Shown: positions 4,230 through 31,903, counted from the stretch's first letter. The stretch is 32,000 nt of DNA from Crocosphaera subtropica ATCC 51142 (GCF_000017845.1 NC_010547.1:270001-302000); one strand, 5' to 3'. Translations and numbers: made by a program. Notes: a model not told the origin generated them from the sequence alone.

Positions 4230-4287
4230 TAGGGGGGGATGATAAAAAAGCCGAGAGCCTCACACAGAGATAATTGTAGCAGGAAGA

Positions 4288-4317
4288 AGAGTCCGAAAAG
4301 AATTATTCTCGGACTCT
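4288..4317 (-). terminator. Hairpin downstream of the 4376..5215 gene
   Basis: agagtccga (4288-4296) pairs with tcggactct (4309-4317) around a 12-nt loop. It is T-rich on both sides. Confidence 0.3.
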
Positions 4318-4375
4318 TTTAATGGTTTCGATGCCAAAGACAACAATTCGTTGTCGTTTAGTATAAAAATATTGA

Positions 4376-5215
4376 TTAGGAATAAACTTTTTCCACTAGC
4401 TGTAGCATTTCCTCTTCCAAGGGAGTCAGATAAGGCCGATCAATCTTACCCAGTAACCGTAACACTCCTTTGGCCGTCTTTTCTAACTCAGTTTTTTGTA
4501 GTCGCTGAATTCTACCATGAAGTTTTTGGATGGCTTGACAATCTTCTTCGGTATATTCTAATTCTCGCAAGAACTCAATCTCTATTCCTTCTAATTCTGT
4601 ATCCCAAATTTGTAGATCACAAGTGGTTTTTGTTAGTGCTGTAACAATTCCCCAACAACCATTTTTCCCTTTTAATTCAGGGTTATCTTGAGCAACAATA
4701 CCCACCACTTCCCCTAACTCAAAGGGATTATCCTCATCTCCCCTGGTCATTTCCCGTACCACTTTTTTAACGATGTGGTGACGAGGAACTTTACCATCAG
4801 AAATCGCTACTGCTTTGTCCCATGCTTCCACTTGTAGAGGTGGTTTCTTCAATACGCCCAACGGTCTAACCTGAAATTCGCTCTTTGGGAGAACTTCACA
4901 ACCACTGGCTTCTAGATTCTCGTAGATGGTGGCGGCTACGATTAAATAGTCTGACTTTTGACGAGAATGACCAAACGTTTCCTGACAATACACCGCAAAA
5001 CTAGGATGAGTATCACGATATAACTTTTTATCCCTTAGTTCCCGTAAGGCTTTTCCTGCAGCCCACACAGCACCAACAACAATCGCTTCCAACCTTTGCT
5101 TTTCAGAAAGTTCTGCTGCACTTAAAGGTTTAAACTCATCATCTAATCTTAGTCCTCTATTTTCATCGGATATCACTTCAACATCAATGGTTCGTGGAGC
5201 CTGAGACTGAGCCAA
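4376..5215 (-). CDS. Hypothetical protein, possibly a ParB/KorB-like HTH DNA-binding protein
   Basis: This is a long ORF with a TTG start and no in-frame ATG upstream. The segment ALRELRDKKLYRDTHPSFAVYCQETFGHSRQKSDYLIVAATIYENL resembles plasmid and phage HTH proteins of the DUF3102/ParB type. This comparison is from memory only. Confidence 0.5.
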   Translation of the reverse strand: MAQSQAPRTIDVEVISDENRGLRLDDEFKPLSAAELSEKQRLEAIVVGAVWAAGKALRELRDKKLYRDTHPSFAVYCQETFGHSRQKSDYLIVAATIYENLEASGCEVLPKSEFQVRPLGVLKKPPLQVEAWDKAVAISDGKVPRHHIVKKVVREMTRGDEDNPFELGEVVGIVAQDNPELKGKNGCWGIVTALTKTTCDLQIWDTELEGIEIEFLRELEYTEEDCQAIQKLHGRIQRLQKTELEKTAKGVLRLLGKIDRPYLTPLEEEMLQLVEKVYS

Positions 5216-7664: not shown

Positions 7665-8220
7665 TAGGGAATGGCGATATAGTAATAAAATTATTATCAG
7701 AAAGTTTTTGATAATTTTGTACCCAATGATCATAAGGGGTTTTTTCAGAACCAGAAACGATAATATTTTGTTTTAACCTCACTCCTTTGAGAGATGAACC
7801 CTGGCACGGAATAGAAGCTCTAATGATATATTCCTGGTTTCTATTTAGTTCAGGAAGTTGATAATTTAAACGCCCTTCAGTTAAGATAATACGTTGATTT
7901 TGTCCAATAATTGTTCTGTTGTCTTTGGTGGTTATGGTAATTTTTATCTTCTGTGGTTTTCTCAATTGAGCAACTTCAAGAACAACAAAAGGTTGTTCTT
8001 GACTGGTATTTATATTATCTGTTTGGGCAACCCCGATCAAGGACAATTGTGGTAAATAATTGGGGCAACCTCTTGAAGTTTCCCCTTGGGTATTTTCAGG
8101 AGATTCTTCTTTTGGCGGTTCCCAAGCTGTTGCTTTAGGCATATTCAAGTTGCTCAAACTTAGAAATACTATCAGGTTGATAAAAAAGTTTTTCGATAAA
8201 ATCAAACCCATAAATATCAT
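7657..8220 (-). CDS. DUF928-like exported protein
   Basis: It has a signal-peptide-like N-terminus. PPKEESPENTQGETSRGC follows, then a beta-rich body ending in a second Cys (IRASIPCQG). This matches my memory of the DUF928 pattern (PP..G.P....G.sRG.C). Confidence 0.65.
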   Translation of the reverse strand: MIFMGLILSKNFFINLIVFLSLSNLNMPKATAWEPPKEESPENTQGETSRGCPNYLPQLSLIGVAQTDNINTSQEQPFVVLEVAQLRKPQKIKITITTKDNRTIIGQNQRIILTEGRLNYQLPELNRNQEYIIRASIPCQGSSLKGVRLKQNIIVSGSEKTPYDHWVQNYQKLSDNNFITISPFPSE

Positions 8221-10273
8221 GTATTTATTTCTACTTTCAAAATCCTGTATTTTCTTGATCTACTTACTTAGCTTAGGATATTTTACCCCGTTTGTTACCG
8301 CTTATCCTTCAATTTCTGAAAATTTACGTCAATTTTACCTATACATTAACAATGGAGATTATAACCAAGCTGCAAAAACCATAGAAGAACTATCCGATTC
8401 ATCTATGAAATTAGCTCTGAGTGCAGACCTAGCTTACTATCAAGGGCAATATGATGAGGCAATTGCCTTATATGAAGAAGCTAGTCAGACTCTTGATTCT
8501 CAGAAAATTCTCTTAAATTGGAGCAAAGCATTATATCAACGGGGACGTTTTTACGAAAATTTAAACGTTGACGAGGGTAACTTTGATTTAATTCAACTGA
8601 GTGAAACCGATTTTTCTCTAGCGTCATCTAAAATAGCTCAATTACTAAACAACAATTCTTCTGATTACCTAGAAGCTCGGTTACTGGCAGCTAAACTTAA
8701 TAAAGATGATTTAACAGTAGACTTGGAAGCGATAGAGAAAGATATTTTATCCTTAGAAAACTCCAACAGAAAAATTCGTTTTTTACTAGACTTAGCTGAG
8801 ATATCTCCTAAATCTAAGATATGGAAACAAGCTTTTTCTCTGGCTATCCAATTAGATAATTTACAATATCAATCTTTAGCCCAAGGTAATTTGGGAGAGA
8901 ATTATTTACAAAAGAATGCTCCACAAGCTGCATTAAAGTCGGCATGGTTGGCTCAATTAGCAGCTTCGAGAATCCAGGATTGGCAATCTTTGATTCGATG
9001 GCATTATTTGGCGGCGAGATCCTTTCAGCAGTTAGAAGACCAGGATTCCGCTATTGCTCAATATAAATTAGCTGTTGCCACTATTAAAAAATTGAGACAA
9101 CAGTTAAGTGGGAACCCGATTTCTCCTCACTTATATTTCGATGTGGTTAAACCTGTTCTTAATGATTATTTACAGTTGCTTCTTTCTCTTTCTTCTCCTC
9201 CCTTAGAAGAAGTTATTTCTCTTCAGCAGTTAGATCAGTTAGGGCAATTAGATAATTATTTCCAAGTTATTTGTCAATTCGACCTTGACACTCCTCAGAA
9301 ATTAATAGAAAAGACAGAAGCTCGCATTTTTTTTGTTGAGCTTGATGAGTCTATTCATGCTATTTTGCAACTGTCCGACTCCTTACGACATTATCCATTA
9401 GCCATTGAGCCAGAGTTGTTACGATCGCAGGTCAGAGAGTGGAGAGTTGAGCTAATGAACGGAGATTTTGATTCGTCTTTTGAATTGAGTTCGATTCTGT
9501 ATAGAACAATTTTAGCTCCCTTAATGCCTATCTTAAAAGCTAATGACATTGAACATTTACAGTTAATCTCCAATGGCGTTCTCAGAACCATTCCAATAGC
9601 TGCCTTAAACGATGGGGAAAAATATTTAATAGAACATTTTGCCCTGAGTTATAGTTTAGGTCTTCGTAACAGAGTGTCTCCTTCGCTACAAAGAGATTTT
9701 TTACCCTTGATTGCCGGACTGACTCGCTCAACTCCTAATTTTCCAAACAAACTTGAATTTGCTCAAAGAGAAGCTCGTCAAGTGCAAACTTTACTAGGAG
9801 GAACCATTTTACTCAATGATGGGTTTTCTGCCGAGTCCCTGAAAACGCAATTACAAGATTCTCGTTACCAAATATTGCATTTAGCTACCCATGCTAGTTT
9901 CTCTTTTGTCCGTGAGCGAGCCTTTATTGAAACGGGAACTCAGACGATTTCTTTGAACCAGTTTGAGTCAATTCTCAAACAACGACGTTCTCCTCTACAA
10001 TTACTGGTTTTAAGTGCTTGTCAGACTGCCATAGGCGATCGCTATTCAGCGTTAGGTTTATTAGGAGTAGGATTAAGGAATAATATTGACGTTGTTGTAG
10101 GGTCATTCTGGGAAGTGGGGGATAGCAACACTTCTCAACAGATGAAGCAGTTTTATAAATTTTGGCAACAAGGATCTTCTTTGCCTGAAGCATTACGCCA
10201 AGTCCAATTAGGGTTAATTCGAGAAGGAGAACTTCCTGCTGATTGGGCTGGTTTTATTGTTGCTTTTAATTAG
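8219..10273 (+). CDS. TPR-repeat / CHAT-domain (caspase-like) protease, probably exported
   Basis: The hydrophobic N-terminus MYLFLLSKSCIFLIYLLSLGYF is followed by about 400 aa of TPR-like helical repeats. The C-terminal CHAT domain has a His/Cys dyad context: ILHLATHASF (His codon 9890-9892) and LLVLSACQTA (Cys codon 10019-10021). The track start at 8060 lies inside the DUF928 gene, so I use the ATG at 8219. Confidence 0.85.
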   Translation: MYLFLLSKSCIFLIYLLSLGYFTPFVTAYPSISENLRQFYLYINNGDYNQAAKTIEELSDSSMKLALSADLAYYQGQYDEAIALYEEASQTLDSQKILLNWSKALYQRGRFYENLNVDEGNFDLIQLSETDFSLASSKIAQLLNNNSSDYLEARLLAAKLNKDDLTVDLEAIEKDILSLENSNRKIRFLLDLAEISPKSKIWKQAFSLAIQLDNLQYQSLAQGNLGENYLQKNAPQAALKSAWLAQLAASRIQDWQSLIRWHYLAARSFQQLEDQDSAIAQYKLAVATIKKLRQQLSGNPISPHLYFDVVKPVLNDYLQLLLSLSSPPLEEVISLQQLDQLGQLDNYFQVICQFDLDTPQKLIEKTEARIFFVELDESIHAILQLSDSLRHYPLAIEPELLRSQVREWRVELMNGDFDSSFELSSILYRTILAPLMPILKANDIEHLQLISNGVLRTIPIAALNDGEKYLIEHFALSYSLGLRNRVSPSLQRDFLPLIAGLTRSTPNFPNKLEFAQREARQVQTLLGGTILLNDGFSAESLKTQLQDSRYQILHLATHASFSFVRERAFIETGTQTISLNQFESILKQRRSPLQLLVLSACQTAIGDRYSALGLLGVGLRNNIDVVVGSFWEVGDSNTSQQMKQFYKFWQQGSSLPEALRQVQLGLIREGELPADWAGFIVAFN

Positions 10274-10311
10274 GAATGGTAAAATTTCTCTTTAGGTGTG
10301 AAGAGTTGGTT

Positions 10312-11010
10312 ATGGATTTAGATTGTAAGTTAAAAAACTGGGAAAATTTTTGTCAGCATCAATTAGGTGATTGGTACGGGACTTGGAGGTTTTATTCAGG
10401 TAACGGAGAGTTTCTTAAATCTTTTCGATGTATTAGAAGTTTTCGCTCTTCTAATGATGAGCAAGTTCAACATCAAAACCATTATTTCTACGAAGATGGT
10501 CAAGAAAAAACGGAAACTTTTGGTCCTTATATTAAACCTGAAATGAGAGGAACTTACTTGAAAAATAGTTTCTCTTGGGGAGTCAAACATCTGAGGGATA
10601 ATTTCTTTTTTGAAACCGGCTTTAGCCATGAAAATAAACGAGCCAGTTTGGTAGCTATCTATGAAAATAGAGTATTGAGACAAGTGATCGCTATTGTGGA
10701 AAATAAGGATGAATTTAAGGAGTCTCTCCCCTTGGAAATGCCTTCAAAATTAGAAGGGAAAAGTCAATCTATCACTACTGATTTAGTTATATCAGAAGAA
10801 AAAAGGCAGGTTTGGCATCCTTTATCTGATAATCTGACTTTATCTTTTCAGGGTAATCTTTTTTTGACTTGTCCTCAAGAACTCACCTCTGATTCCTTTA
10901 ACTTAACCGTAGATTGGTTAGCGATGCCTAGTTTACTCTATCGAGGCATCCGTTCGTTTGATGCTTCCCAATTTAAGGAATTTACTTTACAAACTTTTAC
11001 GACTTTTTAA
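10312..11010 (+). CDS. DUF3598-like protein
   Basis: The N-terminus KLKNWENFCQHQLGDWYGTWRFYSGNGEF ... VQHQNHYFYEDGQ matches the remembered DUF3598 opening (W..F....G.W.GsF ... H.N.Y). There is no signal peptide. An alternative ATG lies at 10276. Confidence 0.55.
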   Translation: MDLDCKLKNWENFCQHQLGDWYGTWRFYSGNGEFLKSFRCIRSFRSSNDEQVQHQNHYFYEDGQEKTETFGPYIKPEMRGTYLKNSFSWGVKHLRDNFFFETGFSHENKRASLVAIYENRVLRQVIAIVENKDEFKESLPLEMPSKLEGKSQSITTDLVISEEKRQVWHPLSDNLTLSFQGNLFLTCPQELTSDSFNLTVDWLAMPSLLYRGIRSFDASQFKEFTLQTFTTF

Positions 11011-11013
11011 GGA

Positions 11014-13722
11014 ATGAAACAAGCTAGAAACGCTTTTCTTATAACAGTTAGTATCTTAATCTCTTCTACTTCTATAGAAGCTCAAATCGTTCCTGATGCT
11101 TCTTTATCTAATCCTTCCACGGTGTCTTCTCAAGATAAACTGATGATTATTGAAGGTGGCACACAGCAAGGAAATAATTTATTCCATAGTTTTGAGCAAT
11201 TTTCAGTGCCAAGTGGCTTTGAGGTGTTGTTTAATAATCGATCTGCCATTCAAAATATTTTTACTAGGGTAACAGGGGCGAATTTATCATTAATCGATGG
11301 ATTAATTAGAGCTAATGGAACAGCCAATTTATTTTTGATTAATCCCAATGGCATTCAATTGGGAACGAATGCCTCTTTAGATGTTGGTGGTTCTTTTATT
11401 ATTAGTACCGCCAATAGTATTAGATTTGCAGATGGCTATGAATTTAGTGCCAGTAACCCTGATTCATTATTAAGTGTCAGTGTCCCTATCGGTTTAACGT
11501 TGAACAATCCTGGTTCAATTAAAATGCGAGGCATCGGACATAATTTAGGTGGGCTAACGAATCCTTTTGTTCCTGTGATCAAAGATCCTGTTCCCTCCGG
11601 CTTAGCTACAAAACCAGGGAATACTTTAGCTTTAATTGGAGGTGAAGTTTATTTAGATGGGGGTGTTCTCAGCGCCGACTCTGGGCAAATTGAAGTGGGT
11701 GGTGTCGCTAGTGGCTTTGTGAAAATCGAACAGAGCGCACAGGGGTGGACTTTTAATTACCAAGCTATTTCTAATTACAATGACATACAAGTCGCGAATA
11801 AATCTTTATTAGATGCTAGTGGGGCTAGTCGTGGATCTATCCAAGTACAAGGTAAAAATATTAGTCTCAAAGATGGCTCGATGTTTTTGATCCAAAATCA
11901 AGGGGAGCAATCTTCTAGTCTGATTAAGATCGTGGCTTCGGAAGCGTTATCCTTAAGTGGAGAAATTGATAATAGATTTTCTTCGACTATTATTAGTGAA
12001 ACCTTCAGTTCAGGAGACGGACCAGATATTACCATTCGAGCCAAGGATATAACGATTCGAGACGGTGGCACTATCAGACCTAAAAGCTATTCTCAAGGTC
12101 GCAGTGGGGATCTCAATATTACCGCAGCCAACTCTCTCAATGTTATTGGAGTAGCCCCTCGTAGCCCCCGTGCAGCCAGTAGTGCTAATACTAGCAATAC
12201 TAATCTAGGCAGTTCAGGGAACACTATAATTATTGCACCTCAATTGAATCTTCGAGATGCGGGATTTGTTGGTAGTGTCTCCTTAGGCCGAGGGGATGCT
12301 GGAACAGTTAAAGTAGAGAGCGATACCATTCATATCCAGGGTGGTAGTTCTGTCCAATCAGAAAGTTCTATCTCTGCAACCAGTTTTTCTCAAGGCAATG
12401 CAGGAACTATTGAGATTAAAACCAAACGTCTGTTTTTAGAAGATGATGCTAATGTTAACGCTGCGACTCTGGGATTTGGGGCCGCCGGAACTATTGAGAT
12501 TCAAGCTGACGAATTAATTGAAATCAAGCCGAATAGTGGCATCATTGCTTCGGTTGTTAATTCCACTGTGGGGGGAGAGCAAGATATTTTCGGTACTCCT
12601 ATAGAATCTACAGGCTCTTCAGGTAATATTTCAATTGAGACTCAATTTCTGAAAATTACCGGAGATAATAGTCAAATTGGTGTCTCTAACCAAGGGTTAG
12701 AAGAAAATGCAGGGCTTCTTACCATTAATGCTGAGTCCATTATTCTCGAAAATCGCGCTAGGCTTAATGCTGATGCTCAGTTTGGGGTCGGAGGGAATAT
12801 TTTTGTTAACACTAAAGATTTTTTAATTACAGAAAAAAGCCGTGTATCTGCTACCTCTGTGGGGGTAGGAAATGGAGGCAATATTCTTATCGACGCTGAC
12901 AATTTGTCTATGTTTGAAGATGGGATTATTACGGCTGAAACCATTGAAGGTTCTGGGGGTAATATCAATTTAGAAGGTGGCACTGTTTTACTACAGTTTG
13001 GGGAAATAAAAGCTTCAACCAAAACAGGAAGTGGTGGAAATATTAGCACCAATTTACAACAATTAAGGGTCGAAAATGATAGTCTCATTGAAGCTTCTGT
13101 AGAAGATTCAGGAATAGGAGGAACTCTAAATATTGTTGCGAATGTCATTTCCCTCAATAATGACAGCCAAATCAAGGCCACCAGTCAATCTGGGTCTGGA
13201 GGGAATATTAATTTTCAAACCTCTACCTTAAAGCTATTAGATAATAGTCAGGTGACTACATCCGCTCAAGATGGGGATGGCGGTAATATTAATTTCACCA
13301 GTGACTTTTTATTCCTGTTAGATAATACTAAAGTTATTGCTAATGCCTTTACAGGAAATGGAGGCAATATAACCATTACCGCCCAAGAAATTTTTAGATC
13401 CCCTGAAAATATCATTTCCGCTTCTTCTGAATTAGGTATCGATGGAACGGTGAGAATTAATACCACTCCTTTTGAAGTGAACCCTCAACCTTTAAAAATT
13501 TCTTTAAGGGAGTCTGAAGACGAAACTAATCCCTTTGAAGTTTGTAATCAAGTCAATACCCGTTTTTCAGTACAAGGCTCTGGAGGCTCATTACCTTCTC
13601 CTTCCTCTCAACTAGAAACTTATACCGTTGAGGATTTAATTCCTTACGGCCAAGCAGTTAGTCTTCAACAAAATGATCAAGGAGACTGGGAGTTATTAAG
13701 CTGTAATGACTTGAAACAGTAG
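11014..13722 (+). CDS. Filamentous-haemagglutinin-like exoprotein (TpsA) with an N-terminal TPS secretion domain
   Basis: A signal peptide is followed by a TPS domain: GNNLFHSFEQFSV, NIFTRVTG, ANLFLINPNGI (NPNG at 11341-11352). The body is a long beta-helix with recurring G(S/N/D)GGNI(N/S/T) units at roughly nt 12780-13390. The C-terminus contains a Cys pair. Confidence 0.9.
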   Translation: MKQARNAFLITVSILISSTSIEAQIVPDASLSNPSTVSSQDKLMIIEGGTQQGNNLFHSFEQFSVPSGFEVLFNNRSAIQNIFTRVTGANLSLIDGLIRANGTANLFLINPNGIQLGTNASLDVGGSFIISTANSIRFADGYEFSASNPDSLLSVSVPIGLTLNNPGSIKMRGIGHNLGGLTNPFVPVIKDPVPSGLATKPGNTLALIGGEVYLDGGVLSADSGQIEVGGVASGFVKIEQSAQGWTFNYQAISNYNDIQVANKSLLDASGASRGSIQVQGKNISLKDGSMFLIQNQGEQSSSLIKIVASEALSLSGEIDNRFSSTIISETFSSGDGPDITIRAKDITIRDGGTIRPKSYSQGRSGDLNITAANSLNVIGVAPRSPRAASSANTSNTNLGSSGNTIIIAPQLNLRDAGFVGSVSLGRGDAGTVKVESDTIHIQGGSSVQSESSISATSFSQGNAGTIEIKTKRLFLEDDANVNAATLGFGAAGTIEIQADELIEIKPNSGIIASVVNSTVGGEQDIFGTPIESTGSSGNISIETQFLKITGDNSQIGVSNQGLEENAGLLTINAESIILENRARLNADAQFGVGGNIFVNTKDFLITEKSRVSATSVGVGNGGNILIDADNLSMFEDGIITAETIEGSGGNINLEGGTVLLQFGEIKASTKTGSGGNISTNLQQLRVENDSLIEASVEDSGIGGTLNIVANVISLNNDSQIKATSQSGSGGNINFQTSTLKLLDNSQVTTSAQDGDGGNINFTSDFLFLLDNTKVIANAFTGNGGNITITAQEIFRSPENIISASSELGIDGTVRINTTPFEVNPQPLKISLRESEDETNPFEVCNQVNTRFSVQGSGGSLPSPSSQLETYTVEDLIPYGQAVSLQQNDQGDWELLSCNDLKQ

Positions 13723-13779: not shown

Positions 13780-15090
13780 CTAAAATTTTAAGACTCCTTC
13801 GACAGAAAACGTTACTTCATTTAATTGATTAGTATCTGTCGGAGCAACAGCATTAAGCGGCGCACCTACATCTAATCCTACTCGTAGAGAATTCCACTCA
13901 AATCTTAGCCCAACTCCTGTGCTAACCAATGTTCTTGTGGGTAATATATCTTCTAATGATCCCCACACCTGACCATAATCAACGAATCCTAAAACTTGGA
14001 GTGCAGTAGATTCTTGTTGTAATAGAGAATATCTGAGTTCTAAGGTTCCAGCAATGCAATTATCATCGCTCACAAAGTTGGTTCCGTATCCTCGAACTGT
14101 ATTGCCAAAAATAAAAACGTTCCCATTTTTCCCTCCTAATGCACATCTTTCACCTCCAGGTTGCCGATGAGGGGATAAGTGAAGGGCAAATCGTCCGTAT
14201 AACTGTAAATGATCTGTAAGAGCTTTGATGACTTGCCCTTGAGCTTTCCAACTAAAAAAAGTGGGATCAATCTCTTCAGAGGAACCTCCTATGGAAAAAG
14301 TTGATGAGCCGAAAATAACTTGTCCAGGAATGATCTCAGAATATGTCGCTCCTATTCGCCCTACTGTAAGTTGGGGGTCTGAAAATAGTCGCCTGTTTAA
14401 TACTCTTCCCCTACTTTCTCTACGTTCGAGTTTGAAGTCTATGGTCAGGGAACGATTAGCAGTTTTTATCAAATACTGATTATAACCAACAGAGGCGGTA
14501 AAAGCTTCATTTTTTACGTTGAAGGGTTCTAAATTTCCCTCTACGATCTCTGAATCGCTTTCTTGATAAGCAAATTCTAAACTGCTATCATTCGGAGCAA
14601 ATTCATGTCGGTACACAGCTAAAAACCTTTGTAGCCCCTCTGTTTCTTTATATAAGAATCTGACACTGTCTCCATGCCAAATGTTTTGATTTAATAGTTC
14701 AACTTCAACCCCATCATCTCCAATTAGAGGATTTTCAAAATTATTAATCGTCGTCCTTATCTGCCATGAAGGCGATTCTAGGACGTTTACCGTCAGGATA
14801 CTTTGTCCTATTCGACCTGTTTGTGATAGATTTGCATCTATTTCCGATAATTTCGGATTTTGAGACAGAATTTTTAGTCTCTCTAAAAGAATATTTTGAT
14901 TAAAAGGCGGACCGAGAAACGGCTTGATTCTAGCTGCTACATATTGTTTGAGGTTTTCAGTCCCCTTGATTTCCAGTTGGACTTCTCCTTCAATCGCCTT
15001 ATAATAAACAACCCCTTGAGTAATCTTTTGAGATTCTAACAAGACTATTGAGTTAACATATCCTGCATCAACATAGGCTTGAGTTAACAA
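13780..15090 (-). CDS. ShlB/FhaC/HecB-family TpsB outer-membrane transporter, 5'-truncated (probable pseudogene)
   Basis: The ORF begins at a TTG inside POTRA1 (LTQAYVDAGYVNSIVLLESQKITQGVVYYKAIEGEV) and continues through POTRA2 and the beta-barrel, ending in F. The signal peptide, N-terminal helix and most of POTRA1 are missing. An in-frame stop lies at 15124-15126, and no frame is open in 15125-15275. Confidence 0.75.
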   Translation of the reverse strand: MLTQAYVDAGYVNSIVLLESQKITQGVVYYKAIEGEVQLEIKGTENLKQYVAARIKPFLGPPFNQNILLERLKILSQNPKLSEIDANLSQTGRIGQSILTVNVLESPSWQIRTTINNFENPLIGDDGVEVELLNQNIWHGDSVRFLYKETEGLQRFLAVYRHEFAPNDSSLEFAYQESDSEIVEGNLEPFNVKNEAFTASVGYNQYLIKTANRSLTIDFKLERRESRGRVLNRRLFSDPQLTVGRIGATYSEIIPGQVIFGSSTFSIGGSSEEIDPTFFSWKAQGQVIKALTDHLQLYGRFALHLSPHRQPGGERCALGGKNGNVFIFGNTVRGYGTNFVSDDNCIAGTLELRYSLLQQESTALQVLGFVDYGQVWGSLEDILPTRTLVSTGVGLRFEWNSLRVGLDVGAPLNAVAPTDTNQLNEVTFSVEGVLKF

Positions 15091-23242: not shown

Positions 23243-26200
23243 ATGAATTACAAAATAGAAGAAAAACATTTCACCGAATGGGTACATGGTTCCGGTGTTG
23301 ATCCCCAAATTGTGGGATTAAATGTGCGATCGCTCTCAGGAACCACACCACATGAGCATTTACTTTACTCAGACAAATTACCCAGACGAAACGATGGGAG
23401 GTTATCAACCGGATACTTGCGTCGCTGCGAACATTGGGAATTAGGGGGGTGGTACTGTAATGGAATTGACTTGCTAACCGGTGATGAATCTTTATGGGGG
23501 TGCTTTAAGCCGAATAAGCCAAGAATAGTCACGAAAAACGATGGCTTTGACCCCGATCCCTCTGAACGTAAACAAAAACCTATCAAATATGAACATCCCC
23601 CAAAAGTTCAGACAGAAATATTTGCCCTAAGAGTGCCGAGGGCGATCGCAGAGGCCATCGCAGATCGATACAATATACCAATCCCAGAAGAAACAGAATT
23701 TTGGCAGTGGCTGATAGATCATCCTGAAATCCCCATTGTTATTACAGAAGGGGCTAAGAAAGCAGGGGCGTTATTGAGTGCCGGACGTTGTGCGATCGCC
23801 TTCCCTGGAATCTACAACGGGTATCGGCAACCCAAGGACGAAGATGGTAAGAAAACAGGGAAAGCTTACCTCATCCCTCAGTTGCAAGTGTTGGCCCAAC
23901 CCGGAAGAGAGTTTTATTTTGGGTTTGACTCTGATAATAAAATTAAGACCATTACCAATGTGAACAAGGCGATCGAGAAAACAGCTTTTCTCTTAGAAGA
24001 ACAGGGTTGTACTTGTAAGGTTATTGAGTGGTCTAATGAACACAAAGGGGTCGATGACTTAATCGTGGCTAAAGGAGTAGAAGCTTTTGATCAAGCCTAT
24101 CAAAAAGCTAAGTCTATATCTCTATGGAAAGTTAGTCGATTAAAACAGTTAACTTACTCAGTAGCTGTCGAAATAGATCCTCACCTACGTTACTTACCCA
24201 AGTTAGAAATTCCTCAAGGCGTAAAACTGATTGGACTCAAAGCCAGGAAAGGACGGGGGAAAACTTATAGCATCGAGGATGAGGTGGCACAAGCTATCCA
24301 TGATGGGAGAAGGGTGTTAGTGTTATCCCACCGACGGCAACTGGTGGCCTCGTTGTGCGATCGCTTCGGATTAGATAACGTCAACGGTTATCAGACCAGT
24401 GAAACCGGTGGGAAATTGGGTTACGGGTTATGCACCGACTCTCTACGCCAAGACTCGCAAGCTAGGTTTAGACCCCATGAGTGGATAGATGCACTGGTTA
24501 TTATTGATGAGGTCGAACAGGTGCTATGGCACACTTTGGCAGCCCATACCAAAGTTAAGGATTATCGAGTAGAAATCCTCAGAAATTTACAACAAGTTAT
24601 CGAGGTGGTTCTGGGTTCCGAACGGGGACAAGTGTTAGTAGCTGATGCAGATTTGAGTGATGTCAGTCTCGATTATATTAGAAGCTTAGTAGATAATCCC
24701 CCCGAACCCTACATCATTCACCAAGGTTACAACGCCACTACCATCACATCGGAAGAGAAATGGCAGATTTACAACTACGATCACACCAACCCGAAGCGTT
24801 TACTTGCAGACTTACTTGAACATATAAGACGAGGGGGTAAACCGTTTATCTGTGTATCGGCACAGAAAAGAAAAAGCCAATTTGGAACCATTAACCTTGA
24901 GACGATGCTCCTCGAATATTTTCCTTCTCTAAGGATACTAAGAATCGATAGTGAAACGATTACTACACCCGAACATCCGGCTTATGGTTGCATTGAACGA
25001 CTTGATGAAGTGTTGCCTCATTACGATGTAGTCCTTTCATCCCCCTCCATCGAAACCGGTGTCAGTGTTGACCATGAATACCTCAATCCAGTCACCAGTC
25101 AAACCTCGCCAGTCACCAGTAATGAGATAGAAGTTAAACCGAATCTTTCAGTGTTGCAGTTTTTTTTGATGGCAATGATAAAATCAGTTACCAGTCACCA
25201 GTTACCAGTCACCAGTGAAAGACAGTTGACAGTTACTAATGAGCAATCAGAGATTAATAATTCTCGTACTTTAGCTAAGGGTGAAGATGAGAAAACAAAA
25301 CTGGTAAGGAGTGACTGTTCATTGGTGAGTGTCAAATTAGCGATCGCTCTTTGTTGGTTATCTTTGGCCCCGGAACCGATCATAGAAGATTTACCCCCCA
25401 GTGAGTTCGTCGGGCAAAAGGATGAAGAAGCGAAACATCTGGGCCATCACCTCAAACAACTTTCGGTAGATAACTGTGGGGTTTACCATCGTCGGGTGAG
25501 TGATGCTGAAACATTAAGCGATCGCGCCTTTGAAGAATTAAAGCGTCGCCAAACTCGAAGCACTGAAGAACGACTGCAACTGCACAAGACAGAAATTTGC
25601 CGGAAATATGAAGTCAAAGACGTTTCTCCTGAATTAGTCAAATTGGATGAACAACGAGTGTACGCTCGTATGAGACTGCATTACTATGGGACTGTGGGAC
25701 GGGCTTATATGAAGCAGAAGGAGAGAAAAAGATTAGAAAAAATGTTGCAACTGGGGCAAGGTTGTTTGTTCTCTCCCGACTTTAATCGTAATAGTATTTC
25801 CGCTAAGATTTGGGTTTACGAATTCCTTGGCTTCTTTCCTTTGCTACAAAAAACCCAGGTTCACAAAGATGACCCCGATTTGCAACAATTAGCCACAGTA
25901 TCAAAAGAATTTGCCCATGATATCAAGTCTATTTTGCACGTAAGCATCAACCTTGACGACAGCCCTGTAGTGGTTTATCGCAAGTTACGCCAACCTCTGG
26001 GGCTTCCCAAGTTGATTAAGTTGGGTAGGTTTGGGTCAAGAGGCGATCGTCATTATACTTATGCGAATCCAGACCTCACTGAACGGTACGAATTGTTTGA
26101 TCGGTGGTTGGCATCGGAACAACCCTTACCTACTGAACAGCCATCACCGGTGCAATGGGCGATGAGGATGCTACACCGACTAGAATCTCCTGCACGGAGT

Positions 26201-26344
26201 TTTGTTGATAGCACTGAAGCTAACAAGTTTCTACAGGCGATCGATTCTAAATTAACTTCTGTTGTTGATGAAGTTGAAAAGGTTTGTTCTGATTTTTGCC
26301 CTCGATTTTGGGAAGCTTTTCGTTTAGCTATTTCTGAAGTCTAG
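23243..26344 (+). CDS. Plasmid replication protein of the cyanobacterial CyRepA/DUF3854 type (TOPRIM primase-like domain plus P-loop NTPase)
   Basis: TOPRIM-like motifs are IVITEGAKKAGALLSAGRCAIAFPGIYNG, FYFGFDSDNK and HKGVDDLIV. Walker A is KARKGRGKTY (about 24248-24268) and Walker B is LVIIDEVEQV. The long helical C-terminus follows. Confidence 0.75.
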   Translation: MNYKIEEKHFTEWVHGSGVDPQIVGLNVRSLSGTTPHEHLLYSDKLPRRNDGRLSTGYLRRCEHWELGGWYCNGIDLLTGDESLWGCFKPNKPRIVTKNDGFDPDPSERKQKPIKYEHPPKVQTEIFALRVPRAIAEAIADRYNIPIPEETEFWQWLIDHPEIPIVITEGAKKAGALLSAGRCAIAFPGIYNGYRQPKDEDGKKTGKAYLIPQLQVLAQPGREFYFGFDSDNKIKTITNVNKAIEKTAFLLEEQGCTCKVIEWSNEHKGVDDLIVAKGVEAFDQAYQKAKSISLWKVSRLKQLTYSVAVEIDPHLRYLPKLEIPQGVKLIGLKARKGRGKTYSIEDEVAQAIHDGRRVLVLSHRRQLVASLCDRFGLDNVNGYQTSETGGKLGYGLCTDSLRQDSQARFRPHEWIDALVIIDEVEQVLWHTLAAHTKVKDYRVEILRNLQQVIEVVLGSERGQVLVADADLSDVSLDYIRSLVDNPPEPYIIHQGYNATTITSEEKWQIYNYDHTNPKRLLADLLEHIRRGGKPFICVSAQKRKSQFGTINLETMLLEYFPSLRILRIDSETITTPEHPAYGCIERLDEVLPHYDVVLSSPSIETGVSVDHEYLNPVTSQTSPVTSNEIEVKPNLSVLQFFLMAMIKSVTSHQLPVTSERQLTVTNEQSEINNSRTLAKGEDEKTKLVRSDCSLVSVKLAIALCWLSLAPEPIIEDLPPSEFVGQKDEEAKHLGHHLKQLSVDNCGVYHRRVSDAETLSDRAFEELKRRQTRSTEERLQLHKTEICRKYEVKDVSPELVKLDEQRVYARMRLHYYGTVGRAYMKQKERKRLEKMLQLGQGCLFSPDFNRNSISAKIWVYEFLGFFPLLQKTQVHKDDPDLQQLATVSKEFAHDIKSILHVSINLDDSPVVVYRKLRQPLGLPKLIKLGRFGSRGDRHYTYANPDLTERYELFDRWLASEQPLPTEQPSPVQWAMRMLHRLESPARSFVDSTEANKFLQAIDSKLTSVVDEVEKVCSDFCPRFWEAFRLAISEV
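25185..25217 (+). repeat. Heptanucleotide (STRR-like) tandem repeat CAGTNAC inside the rep ORF
   Basis: The sequence cagttac cagtcac cagttac cagtcac cagtg runs from 25185 to 25217. Related copies ccagtcaccagt lie at 25088-25099 and 25109-25120, and cagttgacagttac at about 25223-25236. Confidence 0.8.
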
Positions 26345-26411
26345 TCTAAGTATTCTATATTTCTATATTAGATTTAATAGACACAAACTGTTACTGATTA
26401 TACTAAATACT

Positions 26412-26460
26412 CCTATTAAGAGAACGAGCAAGGTTCTTGATAGATTAATAGGTCTTTTTA
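26412..26460 (+). terminator. Long hairpin plus T-tract after the rep gene
   Basis: cctattaa (26412-26419) pairs with ttaatagg (26445-26452). There is an inner agaac/gttct stem, followed by tcttttta. Confidence 0.5.
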
Positions 26461-26530
26461 TACTGCTTATAGACTAAATTATTAGAGTATTTTGTAGTAA
26501 AATATAAGAAAAAATTTCCACAATTTAACT

Positions 26531-26755
26531 ATGACAAATTGCAAGTTTTCTAACATTGAGTTTCAAGTTAATAATACAATAAAGACCTCATTTTCTTTTG
26601 ATGAGCTTCATCGATTAAACAGTGAGAAGCTAGATTATCTCAAAGGCTCACTTTTAACTTGTTTGGTAACTACAGGACATATTAGTCAAGATTTAGCCCG
26701 CTCCTTTTATCAAGATATATTAACCAAAAATCAGGCACCAGTTAAAATTATGTAG
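26531..26755 (+). CDS. Hypothetical protein
   Basis: The 74-aa ORF has an ATG start. I recognise no family. Confidence 0.4.
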   Translation: MTNCKFSNIEFQVNNTIKTSFSFDELHRLNSEKLDYLKGSLLTCLVTTGHISQDLARSFYQDILTKNQAPVKIM

Positions 26756-26764
26756 GTAAGTGAA

Positions 26765-27229
26765 ATGAATATATTAAAAATAGTATTTATCAATAAAAAC
26801 AACCTACGAAATGTTTTATTTCTGTTTATATTTTTTGCTGTTGGAGGAGGATTATTCTGGGTTTTAAAGACTTCAGAAACTCAGAAAATTCCAGATAGTT
26901 GCTATCTTTCCCCTTTAGCAATTACAATCGAAGTCGTTCGACAAAACTACTCTGATTGTAAAACTGATATCCAATCTTTAGAAGCTGATATTAATTTTGA
27001 AAAAACTGATCAAAAAATCTCAAAATTAACTACTCAATTAAAGCCAAAAGAACAGCTAACTTTGAGAACAGAAAAAGTGGTTGAGAGTATTTTTCAAGAA
27101 ATTAGAGATGATATTTCTTCCGAACCAATATTAAATATTATAATATTTAGTATTTGTCTCATCTTATTTTTTCTATGGTGTCTTTGTTTTATGTTTTTAT
27201 TAATTTTCTTTATTTTTGTAGACATTTAA
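26765..27229 (+). CDS. Hypothetical membrane protein (TM helices at both ends)
   Basis: The hydrophobic segments are VLFLFIFFAVGGGLFWVL and IIIFSICLILFFLWCLCFMFLLIFFIFV. Confidence 0.5.
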   Translation: MNILKIVFINKNNLRNVLFLFIFFAVGGGLFWVLKTSETQKIPDSCYLSPLAITIEVVRQNYSDCKTDIQSLEADINFEKTDQKISKLTTQLKPKEQLTLRTEKVVESIFQEIRDDISSEPILNIIIFSICLILFFLWCLCFMFLLIFFIFVDI

Positions 27230-27412
27230 TTAACTATTAATTATTTTAAAAAGCCATTACACACCAAAACTTATTAATTCAGTTTTGTGATTGCTTTCAC
27301 TGATTTTCTTAGTCATTCTGATTATTTATTAGTTTTTATCTGTTATAGTATATATTGATTTGAGTATCGAGAACGGAGATTCTCATCGTTCTAAACATTC
27401 AGAATTTTCATT

Positions 27413-28708
27413 TTACCCATCGGATAACTCCTCGATAACAAAATTTTCTAAATAAGCGATCGCCTTCAATGAAGCATTAGCTTTAGCATCTTTTTTAGAA
27501 GTTTCAATCGCTTTGGTTTCAATCAAAGGTTCATCCAACCACTCGATTCGACAACAACAAAGCCAATCATTGCTTACTTGATGGTAAAAGTATTCAGGTC
27601 GTTTCATTTTCAGTTTCTGCAATGCTTCATGTAAATAACCGATAGGGGATTCATGGGCCTCTGTTGGTATTTCTGAAAGGTCGATTTCGTCTTCTGTTTC
27701 AGGGATAAATTCATCAGTTACCACCGTCTGGGCTATGTTTGTCTCTGAATGAATATCCTGCAAAGGACTTTGATCAATGAATTCAGGTGGCACTAAACTC
27801 TGATCTAACACCCCTTCTATCAATAAGTAGTTAGCCTGATGTTTGGCGGCTTGTTTATTACTAGCAATGCCAGGAATGGCTGTGGTTTCTCCTTCTAAGA
27901 TAGACCAAAAAGCAAACTTCCCTGATGCCGTTGTCTTTTCGATGTATTCTACGGTTGTTTGATTCGTCGTCCCTGCTATTTGGATAATTTGAGTGGCTTC
28001 TACCTGTTTTTCTTCTAAATAATCTAATATCGTGTCTTTGATTAATTCTTTCGTTTCTGGGTCATTGTACTCCCCAAAGATTAGATAGTATAAATCTACT
28101 GGTTTGATATTACCGTCTTCTATTCGAGAGATGGCTTCGGGTACAATTTTGTCTAACTTTGATACCCTAAGACTATCTTTAACAATTTGGGAAAATTCTT
28201 TATCCGAAAGATTCTCTATCTTGCCCTTATCCCTTAATATGTGTACGGTTTGATTGAGGCGTTTCTCACGGAAATGTTCGTCTCGTTGTTCTTTGACTTG
28301 GGTGCGTTTGCTATTGATGTGGTTAGCGATCGCTTGTAGTTCTTCTAGGGTGTAAGGAGATTCCTTCCCTTCTATGAAAACTGCTTTGAGAATACGGTGG
28401 TTAACGTAGTCAGCTACCCTGCGAATGGGGGAAGTAAAGTGAGTATAGGCTGGTAAAGCTAGGGCAAAGTGACCAATAACTGCCGGAGAGTAAGTAGCAG
28501 GATTTAACCAACTTTGCAACTTCTGTCTCACCAATTCGGGTAATCCGAGTGTCGTCAGAGTTTCTATCAACTCTTTGCTTTTAGGGGCGATCGCACTTGC
28601 AGTATGGTTCCGGTAGAGTATGGGTAAACGATGCTTCTCGGCTAAACTGGCCACTGCGGTATTAGCCAGGAGCATAAATTCTTGAATGATTTGCTGTGAG
28701 TCACGAAC
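27413..28708 (-). pseudogene. RNB-family (RNase II/R-like) exoribonuclease, 3' fragment, separated from its 5' part by the IscB element
   Basis: The frame is open upstream of the listed Met and reads VRDSQQIIQEFMLLANTAVA. This is followed by HFALALPAYTHFTSPIRRVADYVNHRIL, the RNB C-terminal motifs. The C-terminal region has two dsRBD-like modules, one of which is PIGYLHEALQKL...TSKKDAKANASLKAIAYL. Confidence 0.85.
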
Positions 28709-28942
28709 CCACCACTAATCCAGTAGGTATAGTGGGGGCTTGAAAAGCCCAAGACGTGACCAGACTAAGGTTCTAGAAACCTACGTTATTTGAGTCAAGA
28801 CACCTTGAGATGCGTGCCAGTCTCACGCTCTGTCGCTCATCTTTAAACATCCCTAAACGGGTTAAGGAAGTGAGATGGGCCTAACAAGCTCAAATAACAT
28901 TGTCGAGGCAAACTTTACCCTAGAAATAGGAGATTAAAACTA
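28693..28942 (+). ncRNA. Candidate IscB omega RNA (HEARO-type): about 16-nt flank-derived guide plus about 234-nt scaffold
   Basis: This non-coding leader lies between the element boundary (about 28709) and the iscB ATG. The position and size are as expected for an IscB omega RNA. The stems are ccacta/tagtgg (28712-28717/28730-28735), gggctt/aagccc (28736-28741/28745-28750), aggtt/aacct (28768-28772/28778-28782), tcaag/cttga (28794-28798/28804-28808) and a possible long-range ctcac/gtgag. It is GC-richer than typical intergenic DNA in this window. Confidence 0.65.
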
Positions 28943-30289
28943 ATGTTCGTATTCGTATTGTCAAAAGACAAGCGACCACTTAGCCCCTGCCATCAGGCGA
29001 GAGCTAGAAAACTGCTCAAAGAAGGGAAAGCAGCCGTATATCGAAAATACCCCTTCACTATCATCCTCAAAGAAGAGGTGAACCCTAGCAAACCTCAACC
29101 TTGCCGAATTAAGCTTGATCCTGGCGCAAAAGTAACCGGTATTGCCTTAATTCAAGGGGATAGGATGATCTTTGGTGCTGAACTTGAACATAGAGGATTT
29201 AGAATTAAAGACTCACTTGAGTCAAGAAGACAGTTAAGAAGGGGTCGTAGGGGAAGGAAAACCCGCTACCGAAAACCTCGCTTCCTAAATCGGACACGGC
29301 CTAAAGGTTGGCTTCCTCCGTCCTTACAAAGCCGCGTCGAGAACATTAATACTTGGGTTAATCGGTTGAGAAAACTCTGTCCAGTAGACTCGATTAGTGT
29401 TGAACTTGTTCGGTTTGACACTCAGCAGCTTGAAAATCCTGAAATCTCAGGAGTCGAGTACCAGCAAGGAACTCTTTGCGGGTACGAGGTGCGAGAGTAC
29501 CTGCTAGAAAAGTATCATCGGACTTGTCAGTATTGTGGGGCTAAAGAGGTTCCCTTTGAGATAGAGCATATTGTACCTAAATCAAAGGGGGGAAGCGATC
29601 GCGTTTCTAATCTCACTCTAAGTTGCCACAAATGCAACCAGAAGAAAGGAAACCGGTCAGTTGAGGAGTTCCTTAAGGGTAAGCCTGAAGTGCTGAAACG
29701 AGTTAAAGCTAATGCCAAAAAGCCCCTGAGAGATGCTGCTGCGGTGAACGCTGCTCGGTGGGCAGTCTTTAACCGATTAAAGGCTAGTGGACTAGAGGTA
29801 GAGGCTGGTTCAGGAGGACTAACTAAGTTTAATCGAACCAAGCACGAACTCCCTAAGACGCACTGGCTAGATGCAGCTTGTGTGGGCAAATCAACACCAA
29901 GCAAATTACGAATGCTGGTACAGAAGCCACTTAAAATTAAAGCCACTGGTCACGGCACAAGGCAAATGTGCCGCACCAACAAGTATGGGTTCCCAACTCG
30001 TTATGTCCCGCACAAAAAAGATGTTAAAGGATTTCAAACCGGTGACATTGTTAAGGCTGTAGTTACTAAGGGAAAGAAGACCGGCATTTATGTTGGGAGG
30101 GTAGCCGTACGCTCGACTGGGAGTTTTAACATTTCGACTGCAAAAGGCGTAATCCAGGGCATTAATCACAAATATTGCCGACAAATTCACAAGAAGGATG
30201 GTTACTCTTATGCCACATAGCTACTGCCCACCTTTTCCTCTCATCGCTAACCTTTTCGGTATAGCGAGAGTCTCCAAGGAGGAGGAAAG
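28709..30289 (+). mobile_element. IS200/IS605-superfamily non-autonomous element carrying omega RNA and iscB (no tnpA), inserted in the RNB gene
   Basis: The RNB reading frame stops being RNB-like at 28708/28709 and at 30289/30290. Removing 1581 nt (3 x 527) rejoins ...TTPMYH to VRDSQQIIQEFMLLAN in frame. A subterminal hairpin lies in the 69-nt right end (ctctc..cgcta/tagcgagag, about 30238-30270). The boundaries are good to within a few nt. Confidence 0.75.
28943..30220 (+). CDS. iscB: IscB RNA-guided endonuclease (PLMP domain, split RuvC, HNH insert)
   Basis: The N-terminus is MFVFVLSKDKRPLSPCHQARARKLLKEGKAAVYRKYPFTI (PLMP-type). RuvC-I is IKLDPGAKVTGIAL (D59). The Arg-rich bridge helix is RRQLRRGRRGRKTRYRKPRF. 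RuvC-II is ISVELVRFD (E154). The HNH domain is CQYCG...EIEHIVPKSKGGSDRVSNLTLSCHKCNQKKGN (H209). RuvC-III is HWLDAAC (H307, D310). An AGGAG lies 10 nt upstream of the ATG. Confidence 0.92.
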   Translation: MFVFVLSKDKRPLSPCHQARARKLLKEGKAAVYRKYPFTIILKEEVNPSKPQPCRIKLDPGAKVTGIALIQGDRMIFGAELEHRGFRIKDSLESRRQLRRGRRGRKTRYRKPRFLNRTRPKGWLPPSLQSRVENINTWVNRLRKLCPVDSISVELVRFDTQQLENPEISGVEYQQGTLCGYEVREYLLEKYHRTCQYCGAKEVPFEIEHIVPKSKGGSDRVSNLTLSCHKCNQKKGNRSVEEFLKGKPEVLKRVKANAKKPLRDAAAVNAARWAVFNRLKASGLEVEAGSGGLTKFNRTKHELPKTHWLDAACVGKSTPSKLRMLVQKPLKIKATGHGTRQMCRTNKYGFPTRYVPHKKDVKGFQTGDIVKAVVTKGKKTGIYVGRVAVRSTGSFNISTAKGVIQGINHKYCRQIHKKDGYSYAT

Positions 30290-30904
30290 ATGATACATTG
30301 GGGTGGTGAGGATACGCCCCTCTTCATCTAAGTTGACCCCACCGACACGACTTAAACCAATAGCACCGACATCTTGGCGTTTCCAAGCTAATTTTTGCGC
30401 CCAGAGTTCACAATAACGTAGCATTTGGAAAAATGGCGATGAAGGGTCATGAAGAGTAGCATCAGCCGCAGAGTAAGAAAAGCGTTGTAAACTGGTTAAA
30501 TGCGCTAAATGGAGGGAAGTATTTTTGATATTAGCTGATTCATCGAGAGTGATGCGAATTGTCACCGTCAAACGTAATTTATCTTCGAGTAGAGACAGTT
30601 TATCCTCAGAAAGTTCATGGGGAAACATGGGTTTATTCTTCGTGGCCAAGTAGCGAGTTTCCACCTGTGAGAGTGCATTGGCTTCTAAGGAGGAACCTGG
30701 TTGGATTATGGCCGACACATCCGAGATATGCACGGATACCACAGCCCCTGATTGCTTGGGTTCTATCCATAAAGCGTCATCGAGGTCTTTTGACGTTTCG
30801 CCGTCAATCGTAAAACCGAGTACCGCCTCTCGATTAGTTAGGGATATATTATTATCTAGTAATTGTTCTATTTCGCTTCGTATAATTGGTAATGCTTTAG
30901 CCAC
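30290..30904 (-). pseudogene. RNB-family exoribonuclease, 5' fragment (GTG start), interrupted by the IscB element
   Basis: FTIDGETSKDLDDALWIEPKQSGAVVSVHISDVSAII and MFPHELSEDKLSLLEDKLRLTVTI are the N-terminal RNB motifs. After ...TTPMYH the ORF runs 22 codons into element sequence and stops at 30221-30223. No cold-shock/OB domains precede the RNB domain. Confidence 0.85.
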
Positions 30905-31044
30905 TTTTTCTTTCGGTTCGCTAAAATAAACTACTTTTATATTTGATTTTTTTTAGTTACTAAATCTTTTGAATTATTGACTTAGATGGCTAAAACATTA
31001 TAACATATTAATTCGATTAACTGTTACTTATTTTTCTTAATTTA

Positions 31045-31305
31045 ATGAACTGGTATTTAGTATCTTGTCGTCCGAATAAAAGAGATTTGTTCTTAAAGCA
31101 GTTAGATTTTGAAATTGATAAAAATCAACTTGGAGATTTATTTTTAGAGAAAATATCTCCGAGTGATGCGATGTATAAAGATATGGTACTACTCCAAATT
31201 AGTGATCTTTCATCAGCCCGAATCCATCTTAAGAAAATTGAGCAGTTTCAAAAAATAGAAGCAAGGGCTTTATCAGAACGTCAAGTTCAACAATTTTTAG
31301 GATAA
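31045..31305 (+). CDS. Small NusG/RfaH N-terminal (NGN)-like protein without a KOW domain
   Basis: MNWYLVSCRPNKRDLFLKQL resembles the NGN opening (WY.v.c....e......L). A hydrophobic core follows (YKDMVLLQISD). Confidence 0.4.
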   Translation: MNWYLVSCRPNKRDLFLKQLDFEIDKNQLGDLFLEKISPSDAMYKDMVLLQISDLSSARIHLKKIEQFQKIEARALSERQVQQFLG

Positions 31306-31471: not shown

Positions 31472-31903
31472 TTATTCTTTCAAGTTATTTCTGAATAATT
31501 CCAAAAATTGACTAATAGTTAAAATTGGTATTTTTTCAAATTCTTTTAAAACTAATAAGTCTTTATCTCCAGATATAATTACGTCCACAGGAATTGTTAC
31601 GGCCGTTTCTAAGACAATTTTATCTTGAGGATCTCGTAAGTCGGAAATAGAAGATAAGGGCTTTGGTTGACATAGTAAGGTGATTTTTCTGACTTCTTCT
31701 AATATCTCATCTCTAGTAATTTCTAATTGTGTCAACCTCCGTTCAAGCTTAGCATATTTTAAAGTTTTTTCTAGCTCATCTAATAAAGGAGACGAAATAT
31801 AAATAACAATTTTATTTTGTTGTGCTAACAGAATAATATCTCTGGCTTGTCCACCCCAAAGTAATCCAGAGATCCATATATTAGTATCAAGTAAAACTTT
31901 CAT
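31472..31903 (-). CDS. PIN-domain toxin (PIN_3 / TIGR00305-like)
   Basis: MKVLLDTNIWISGLLWGG ... DPQDKIVLETAV ... VIISGDKDLL carries the conserved acidic residues of PIN nucleases. Its ATG overlaps the upstream ORF stop as ATGA. Confidence 0.85.
   Translation of the reverse strand: MKVLLDTNIWISGLLWGGQARDIILLAQQNKIVIYISSPLLDELEKTLKYAKLERRLTQLEITRDEILEEVRKITLLCQPKPLSSISDLRDPQDKIVLETAVTIPVDVIISGDKDLLVLKEFEKIPILTISQFLELFRNNLKE

Follow-up and report, generated by a model that had tools for sequence, protein, structure and literature searches.

Results

An iscB gene lies inside a disrupted ribonuclease gene

We analysed a stretch of 32,000 nucleotides from Crocosphaera subtropica ATCC 51142 (GCF_000017845.1, NC_010547.1:270001-302000), here called the window, with positions counted from its first letter. 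It belongs to the small replicon of this strain, which we take to be linear. Near the right-hand part of the window, an intact iscB gene and its non-coding leader are framed by the two halves of a gene for an RNB-type ribonuclease. The features of this locus are the following.

27413-28699, minus strand: disrupted ribonuclease with RNB and dsRBD domains, C-terminal part (from Pfam, homologues and an empty site)
28684-28699, plus strand: predicted guide GAAUGAUUUGCUGUGA, host DNA, antisense to the RNB codons S-Q-Q-I-I; the length of 16 nt is assumed
28700, plus strand: right end of the element in the IS200/IS605 convention, identical to the scaffold start G28700
28700-28918, plus strand: omega RNA scaffold (RF02033, full length), whose first base is the first base of the element (from the Rfam match and covariation)
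28815-28818, plus strand: 5' strand of a pseudoknot, UGCC, in a hairpin loop, partner 28907-28910
28907-28910, plus strand: 3' strand of the pseudoknot, GGCA, partner 28815-28818
28919-28930, plus strand: terminal hairpin CCUA-GAAA-UAGG, just past the end of the Rfam model
28943-30220, plus strand: iscB, 425 aa, intact, with the Pfam domains RRXRR and HNH
30221-30289, no strand assigned: left end of the element (read on the minus strand), last base G30289, boundary from the closest related copy (L001) and the empty site (L081)
30290-30295, plus strand: probable TAM ATGA, extended ATGATA, host DNA, RNB codons Y-H on the other strand
30290-30904, minus strand: disrupted RNB ribonuclease, N-terminal part (from Pfam, homologues and an empty site)

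The window as a whole looks rich in mobile elements, with a ParB-HTH fragment (23-460), a tyrosine integrase (3000-4229), a DUF3854 protein of 1033 aa (23243-26344) and a PIN toxin (31472-31903). Between 5748 and 15090 it carries a signalling and secretion cluster that consists of a CHASE2 protein (5748-7733, minus strand), a CHAT protein with TPR repeats (8060-10273, plus), a DUF3598 protein (10276-11010, plus), an exoprotein with a TPS domain (11014-13722, plus) and a ShlB/FhaC-type transporter (13780-15090, minus). This stretch looks like a two-partner secretion set beside a CHAT protease.

The element spans 1590 bp and has exact ends

A protein scan of genome contigs with IscB returned 80 loci. 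The best of these, in Crocosphaera chwakensis CCY0110 (L001), encodes a protein that is 99% identical, and its DNA matches the window only over 28699-30293 (96.4% identity), with unrelated flanks on both sides. The C. chwakensis copy thus sits at a different locus, which points to past mobility. An intact RNB gene on contig NETF01000054 (L081) supplied the complementary view. Its DNA aligns with 27425-28699 of the window and continues without a gap into 30290-31296, so that the empty site joins 28699 directly to 30290. The insertion therefore comprises 28700-30289 and carries no target-site duplication. Because the bases that flank each junction differ, these boundaries cannot slide. Intact RNB homologues read ...TTP(L/M)YH-SQQIIQEFM... 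across the break, the hyphen marking the interruption in the window. Placing the ends at 28700-30292, as restoration of the RNB reading frame would suggest, was rejected; the homologues (YH-SQQ) together with the empty site in DNA lead to 30289. We conclude that 28700-30289 is a mobile element of 1590 bp, non-autonomous and of IS200/IS605 type (ISC), which carries iscB.

The two RNB fragments cover positions 9-184 and 195-324 of the Pfam RNB profile, and the C-terminal one is 100% identical to the 'putative exoribonuclease II' of C. subtropica ATCC 51142. The element is inserted antisense to the interrupted gene. The RNB coding sequence had been taken to end at 28708 in the original prediction; according to the L081 alignment, the last host base is A28699, and the RNB frame stays open by chance through the element bases 28700-28714 (D R V W W, followed by a stop).

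Both ends of the element contain subterminal imperfect palindromes, which TnpA may recognise. At the left end, the imperfect palindrome covers 30240-30270 (CTC-A-TCGCTA ... TAGCGA-GAG), and its fold as single-stranded DNA scores z = -2.5 for the minus strand and z = -2.2 for the plus strand. The right-end region 28700-28760 folds as minus-strand DNA with z = -4.0. No Y1 (HUH) TnpA domain was found in window ORFs of at least 110 aa. Such a result is no surprise, as tnpA lies near only about 1.5% of iscB genes and a non-autonomous state is the usual one (Meers et al.). In the assemblies queried, the exact same protein occurs nowhere else, leaving a single locus.

The surroundings of the RNB gene vary. 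Directly downstream of intact RNB genes, on the opposite strand, lies a GIY-YIG nuclease gene (L081:3426-3851 and L085:2224-2322), and the window DNA below 27413 is unrelated to that neighbourhood. The window segment 4726-5293 shares 77% identity with DNA just beyond RNB in NETF01000054 (about 4031-4598). As this segment lies ~22 kb from RNB in the window, the neighbourhood has been rearranged.

IscB is intact and under purifying selection together with its leader

The IscB protein matches Pfam RRXRR over residues 3-176 (264 bits) and HNH over residues 195-238 (55 bits), in keeping with the N-terminal PLMP/RRXRR region of IscB and its RuvC fold, which is split by an HNH insertion, and it matches solved IscB chains in the PDB with E values from 1e-29 to 1e-47. 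Towards the C-terminal TAM-interacting domain of IscB proteins, the sequence alignment reaches to about residue 323 against OgeuIscB and to residue 380 against TbaIscB. In the alignments, D59, E154, H209, H307 and D310 align with D61, E193, H247, H340 and D343 of OgeuIscB, of which D61, E193, H340 and D343 (RuvC) and H247 (HNH) are catalytic (PMC9640706).

Comparison with the C. chwakensis copy gives a measure of constraint. Only 2 of 243 nt differ in the leader (0.8%), and there is one difference in the 69 nt of 30221-30289. In iscB, 55 of 1278 positions differ (4.3%), 45 of them at third codon positions; counted as codon differences, 46 are synonymous and 6 non-synonymous. Given the small divergence of the leader and the mostly synonymous changes in iscB, both the RNA and the protein are under purifying selection. 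More distant relatives of this cyanobacterial IscB, 50-65% identical to it, occur in assemblies of Poribacteria, Clostridia, Campylobacterota and Methanosarcina (L004, L021, L031, L036, L038, L053 and others), which points to a wide horizontal spread of the lineage.

These data bear on the possibility that the element is an immobile and silent relic, with RNA and protein sequences intact and expression or activity lost in this genome. It is present as a single copy, no tnpA was found among the window ORFs of at least 110 aa, and it runs antisense to a dead gene, without a recognisable promoter. A simple search upstream of 28700 for promoters of the sigma-70 type gave nothing beyond chance, and the interval 26300-28720 showed no terminator-like site; over 26300-30450, the results of both scans did not rise above chance and are uninformative. 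On the other side, the open reading frame is intact with all catalytic residues, and purifying selection has acted strongly on both RNA and protein since the divergence from C. chwakensis. Because the two copies compared reside at different loci, such selection argues against a decaying relic. We consider loss of function in this genome to be unlikely, albeit with a chance that is far from negligible.

The iscB leader is a HEARO-type omega RNA

The leader of iscB was originally proposed to be a candidate omega RNA (HEARO motif), to be recognised by a search with the Rfam HEARO covariance model and by comparative folding. When the whole window was scanned with the covariance models of Rfam 15, a single match exceeded the gathering score, namely HEARO (RF02033) at 28700-28918 on the plus strand, with 156.4 bits (E 2.3e-33) against a gathering score of 83 bits. 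The match runs end to end, with model positions 1-211 of 211 aligned. It stops at 28918, 24 nt before the iscB ATG at 28943 on the same strand, so that the scaffold adjoins an intact iscB gene directly upstream, where it had been expected. HEARO was found in the same position in all 20 related iscB loci scanned, scoring 105-163 bits. Together with the covarying structure across 20 homologous loci described below, this bears out the proposed identity.

Other properties of the leader also agree with what had been noted at the outset. An ORF of 60 aa or more had been reported missing before the iscB ATG, and we found none of at least 40 aa inside the leader (about 28700-28942). The description of the leader as richer in G+C than other intergenic DNA holds (44.9% against 20-39% in four other intergenic stretches of the window), as does its density in hairpins: its predicted fold of -76.9 kcal/mol is better than that of shuffled sequence (z = -3.3), with 2 of 200 shuffles equally good.

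HEARO is the omega RNA of IscB, experimentally shown to be its guide RNA (Meers et al.; PMC9755519; PMC9640706). A literature search for Cyanothece together with HEARO returned no papers. By sequence criteria, the 243-nt leader (28700-28942) encodes an omega RNA scaffold made up of a core of several helices, a pseudoknot of 4 bp and a short hairpin at its end, and it is an ordinary member of the known HEARO/omega RNA family.

Related copies showed several variations. Two loci carry insertions in HEARO and score above the Rfam threshold all the same, one of ~43 nt in the hairpin equivalent to 28847-28871 of the window (L018, 2698-2975) and one of ~51 nt just past the long-range helix (L002, 2701-2928). 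In a megablast search against plasmids, the sole match was partial and lay in Nostoc: the stretch NZ_CP024789.1:83501-83691 on a plasmid of Nostoc flagelliforme CCNUN1 is 81% identical to 28734-28927 of the window and is probably a HEARO copy that has no feature in the PLSDB table.

Covariation supports the RNA structure, including a pseudoknot

The window locus and 19 related loci, each with 20 nt of upstream flank, were aligned with MAFFT without regard to structure. Conservation in this alignment starts abruptly at GTCA/GTAA (28700 in the window), and the 20 nt upstream are unconserved. RNAalifold predicted 46 pairs, 32 of which show compensatory double changes. For scoring, these pairs were combined with two helices of the Rfam consensus into a 56-pair structure. 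Of its 1104 cells, 90.7% are paired, compared with 36-39% after a shift of the partners by 1-3 columns; double changes occur at 38 of the 56 pairs, and the observed covariation score was reached in none of 500 shuffles. The first helix, in which G28700-G28705 pair with 28755-28760, is present in all 20 sequences, and three of its six pairs show compensatory changes.

The 4-bp pseudoknot between 28815-28818 and 28907-28910 is paired in 74 of 74 cells, the slid controls giving 10-38%, and three of the four pairs covary (AU/CG, GC/AU and UA/CG). This is probably the counterpart of the nexus pseudoknot stem of OgeuIscB, which is essential and whose disruption abolishes activity (PMC9640706). The helix 28763-28767/28900-28904, which Rfam denotes by '[[[[[', was considered as a pseudoknot and rejected: it is a nested long-range helix, the true pseudoknot being 28815-28818/28907-28910. 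This nested helix is only 74% paired in the alignment and contains an almost invariant U-U.

The terminal hairpin follows directly on the end of RF02033, a model that does not include downstream structural elements (Meers et al.). Equivalents with other stems are present in most of the 20 loci (CC-GAAA-GG, CGA-GAAA-UCG, CCC-GCAA-GGG and CCAU-UCAU-GG). In the window, its 3' arm overlaps a Shine-Dalgarno-like AGGAG (28928-28932), 10 nt before the iscB ATG. As a speculation, folding of the omega RNA might be coupled to IscB translation through this hairpin over the ribosome-binding site. Between the tetraloop hairpin and the ATG, Microcoleus-type copies (L006, L010, L012-L017 and L019) have a second, conserved hairpin, AGACAC-N6-GUGUCU, which is missing in the window copy, in L001 and in L005.

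The overlap of the hairpin 28919-28930 with AGGAG would also suit a leader that acts solely in cis, as the 5' UTR of the iscB mRNA (for instance to control translation), and gives rise to no separate stable guide RNA; that no promoter is evident in the flank would fit as well. We regard a UTR-only role as very unlikely, since the family is experimentally established as the guide RNA of IscB, conservation begins exactly at the element end, and covariation is perfect in the pseudoknot on which IscB activity depends. Besides, the roles of UTR and omega RNA are not mutually exclusive. That the structure is needed mainly as DNA, as a single-stranded transposon end recognised by TnpA, we hold to be scarcely credible: the first 60 nt do fold well as minus-strand DNA (z = -4.0) and IS200/IS605 ends do use subterminal hairpins, but the covarying structure covers more than 200 nt, which far exceeds a hairpin bound by TnpA, and has a pseudoknot, and the Rfam RNA model matches over its full length. 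Moreover, two pairs are invariant G-U when read on the plus strand (UG in 20 of 20 and in 19 of 20 sequences). On the strand that should be active they would turn into A-C mismatches, which favours plus-strand RNA over an opposite-strand DNA hairpin. The outermost bases of the element very probably serve both purposes, as part of the omega RNA and as a DNA end.

The predicted guide derives from the host flank and ends at A28699

The 5' guide was expected to be transcribed from DNA just outside the element end. This agrees with the boundaries determined here: since the 5' edge of the scaffold coincides with the element end, the guide must come from the flank. The interval assigned to it has to be shifted. 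With 28693-28708 (gctgtgagtcacgaac), the original prediction had placed the native guide nine bases too far to the right, and these nine bases are scaffold. The bases 28700-28708 (GUCACGAAC) are identical in the C. chwakensis copy despite its unrelated flank. As they belong to the scaffold, the guide must end at A28699.

We thus predict a flank-derived guide at about 28684-28699 (GAATGATTTGCTGTGA). Its 3' end is fixed, and the length of 16 nt is chosen by analogy to OgeuIscB, whose guide measures 16-17 nt (PMC9640706); it could be longer, and another HEARO enzyme prefers a 24-nt guide (PMC9755519). The correction by 9 nt matters in practice, because the earlier placement would give a non-functional guide design.

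A conserved ATGA adjoins the far end of the element

The host sequence ATGA at 30290-30293 also adjoins the C. chwakensis copy, and ATGA is the last shared sequence at the far end of 13 related elements (Microcoleus, Lyngbya, Microseira and others). Hormoscilla-type copies (L027 and others), which have different termini, were left out of this comparison. The conserved motif occurs on one side of the element only, and the insertion is precise, with no duplication of the target site. The two empty sites read ATGG (L081) and ATGATA (L085) at the corresponding position. Judging from these junctions and by analogy to characterised systems, ATGA is likely to be the TAM. The IscB of G. stearothermophilus (GstIscB) has TTCAT as its TAM, on the 5' side of the left end (Meers et al.), and ATGA(A) is the reverse complement of this motif. 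The TAM of OgeuIscB is NWRRNA (PMC12660989), a pattern that ATGATA of the window fits.

After excision, the donor joint would read GAATGATTTGCTGTGA followed directly by ATGATA, i.e., a match to the guide and then the TAM. Two further sites were compared with the predicted guide, taking guide positions -8 to -1 as the seed according to the definition in PMC9640706.

Empty allele of the C. chwakensis orthologue (L085): GGATAATTTGCTGTGA followed by ATGATA, 14 of 16 guide positions matched, mismatches at -15 and -12, seed perfect
Paralogous RNB gene in the same genome (L083): GGATAATTTGTTGAGA followed by ATGATA, 12 of 16 matched, mismatches at -15, -12, -6 and -3, two of them in the seed

The intact RNB paralogue in the same species (P0025) is 66% identical and has ATGATA at the equivalent site, with four guide mismatches. 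The match of guide and TAM to the unoccupied C. chwakensis RNB allele would allow the element to be homing-competent across Crocosphaera lineages, an idea that we consider improbable and put forward as speculation. Were it homing-competent, the guide would depend on transcription that crosses the dead RNB gene, either as read-through or as antisense transcription, followed by 5' processing. We know of no description of such a guide supply for IscB.

Discussion

We hold with high confidence the combined reading that an ISC element sits antisense in an RNB gene and that its leader encodes the omega RNA scaffold. For transcription, the 5' end of the RNA and the length of the guide, and equally for IscB binding, cleavage and the function of the TAM, the model is taken from characterised IscB systems. 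On this model, the mechanism would proceed as follows. Transcription entering from the left flank would produce an RNA with a host-derived 5' segment (about 28684-28699) as guide, and IscB would bind the omega RNA scaffold. The complex would recognise an element-free allele by the guide match next to ATGA(TA), where the HNH and RuvC sites would cut, and repair from the occupied copy would restore the element. The occupied site itself would be safe from cutting, because the guide match is followed there by GTCACG and not by ATGA.

IscB elements are biased towards co-orientation with the upstream gene (Meers et al.). Given this bias, the antisense placement suggests that the guide-bearing transcript may be rare here; such an RNA would require read-through beyond 27229, where the plus-strand ORFs end, or a promoter overlooked by the simple scan.

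Compared with the HEARO/OMEGA examples, the OgeuIscB omega RNA (PDB 7UTN and 7XHT) and the ISGst IscB of G. stearothermophilus, nothing differs qualitatively. As in known IscB omega RNAs, the RNA has the same position and strand relative to iscB, long-range helices and a pseudoknot, a 5' edge that equals the transposon end, and a variable 5' segment derived from the flank. The protein is shorter than OgeuIscB (425 vs 496 aa), the insertion is antisense to the interrupted gene, and the window copy and its closest relatives differ from Microcoleus-type copies in having no second downstream hairpin (AGACAC..GUGUCU).

The locus shares with TnpB omega RNA/reRNA systems (IS200/IS605, e.g., ISDra2) a scaffold at the transposon end combined with a flank guide of about 16 nt, a TAM that equals the target motif of the transposase, and the empty site as target. 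TnpB systems, however, encode the RNA at the 3' end of the nuclease gene and have a 3' guide, a 5' TAM and an unrelated scaffold. At the present locus, by contrast, a 5' guide goes with a 3' TAM, and the nuclease combines HNH with RuvC. A 5' guide, a structured scaffold, an HNH and RuvC nuclease and a motif 3' of the target are likewise features of Cas9 with its crRNA:tracrRNA or sgRNA; unlike Cas9, this locus has no CRISPR array, adaptation genes or repeat:anti-repeat duplex, and its guide is fixed by the insertion site.

As a textbook OMEGA locus that a standard Rfam scan annotates, it holds no new biology. The analysis contributes the precise limits of the element, a correction of the guide, a probable TAM, the coordinates of the pseudoknot and evidence for purifying selection. 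The locus provides a natural IscB element whose limits are known to the base and for which an empty site can be set beside the occupied one, which is of modest practical value. With a predicted guide, seed and TAM (ATGA) at hand for a compact cyanobacterial IscB of 425 aa, it may offer a small scaffold for genome editing in cyanobacteria.
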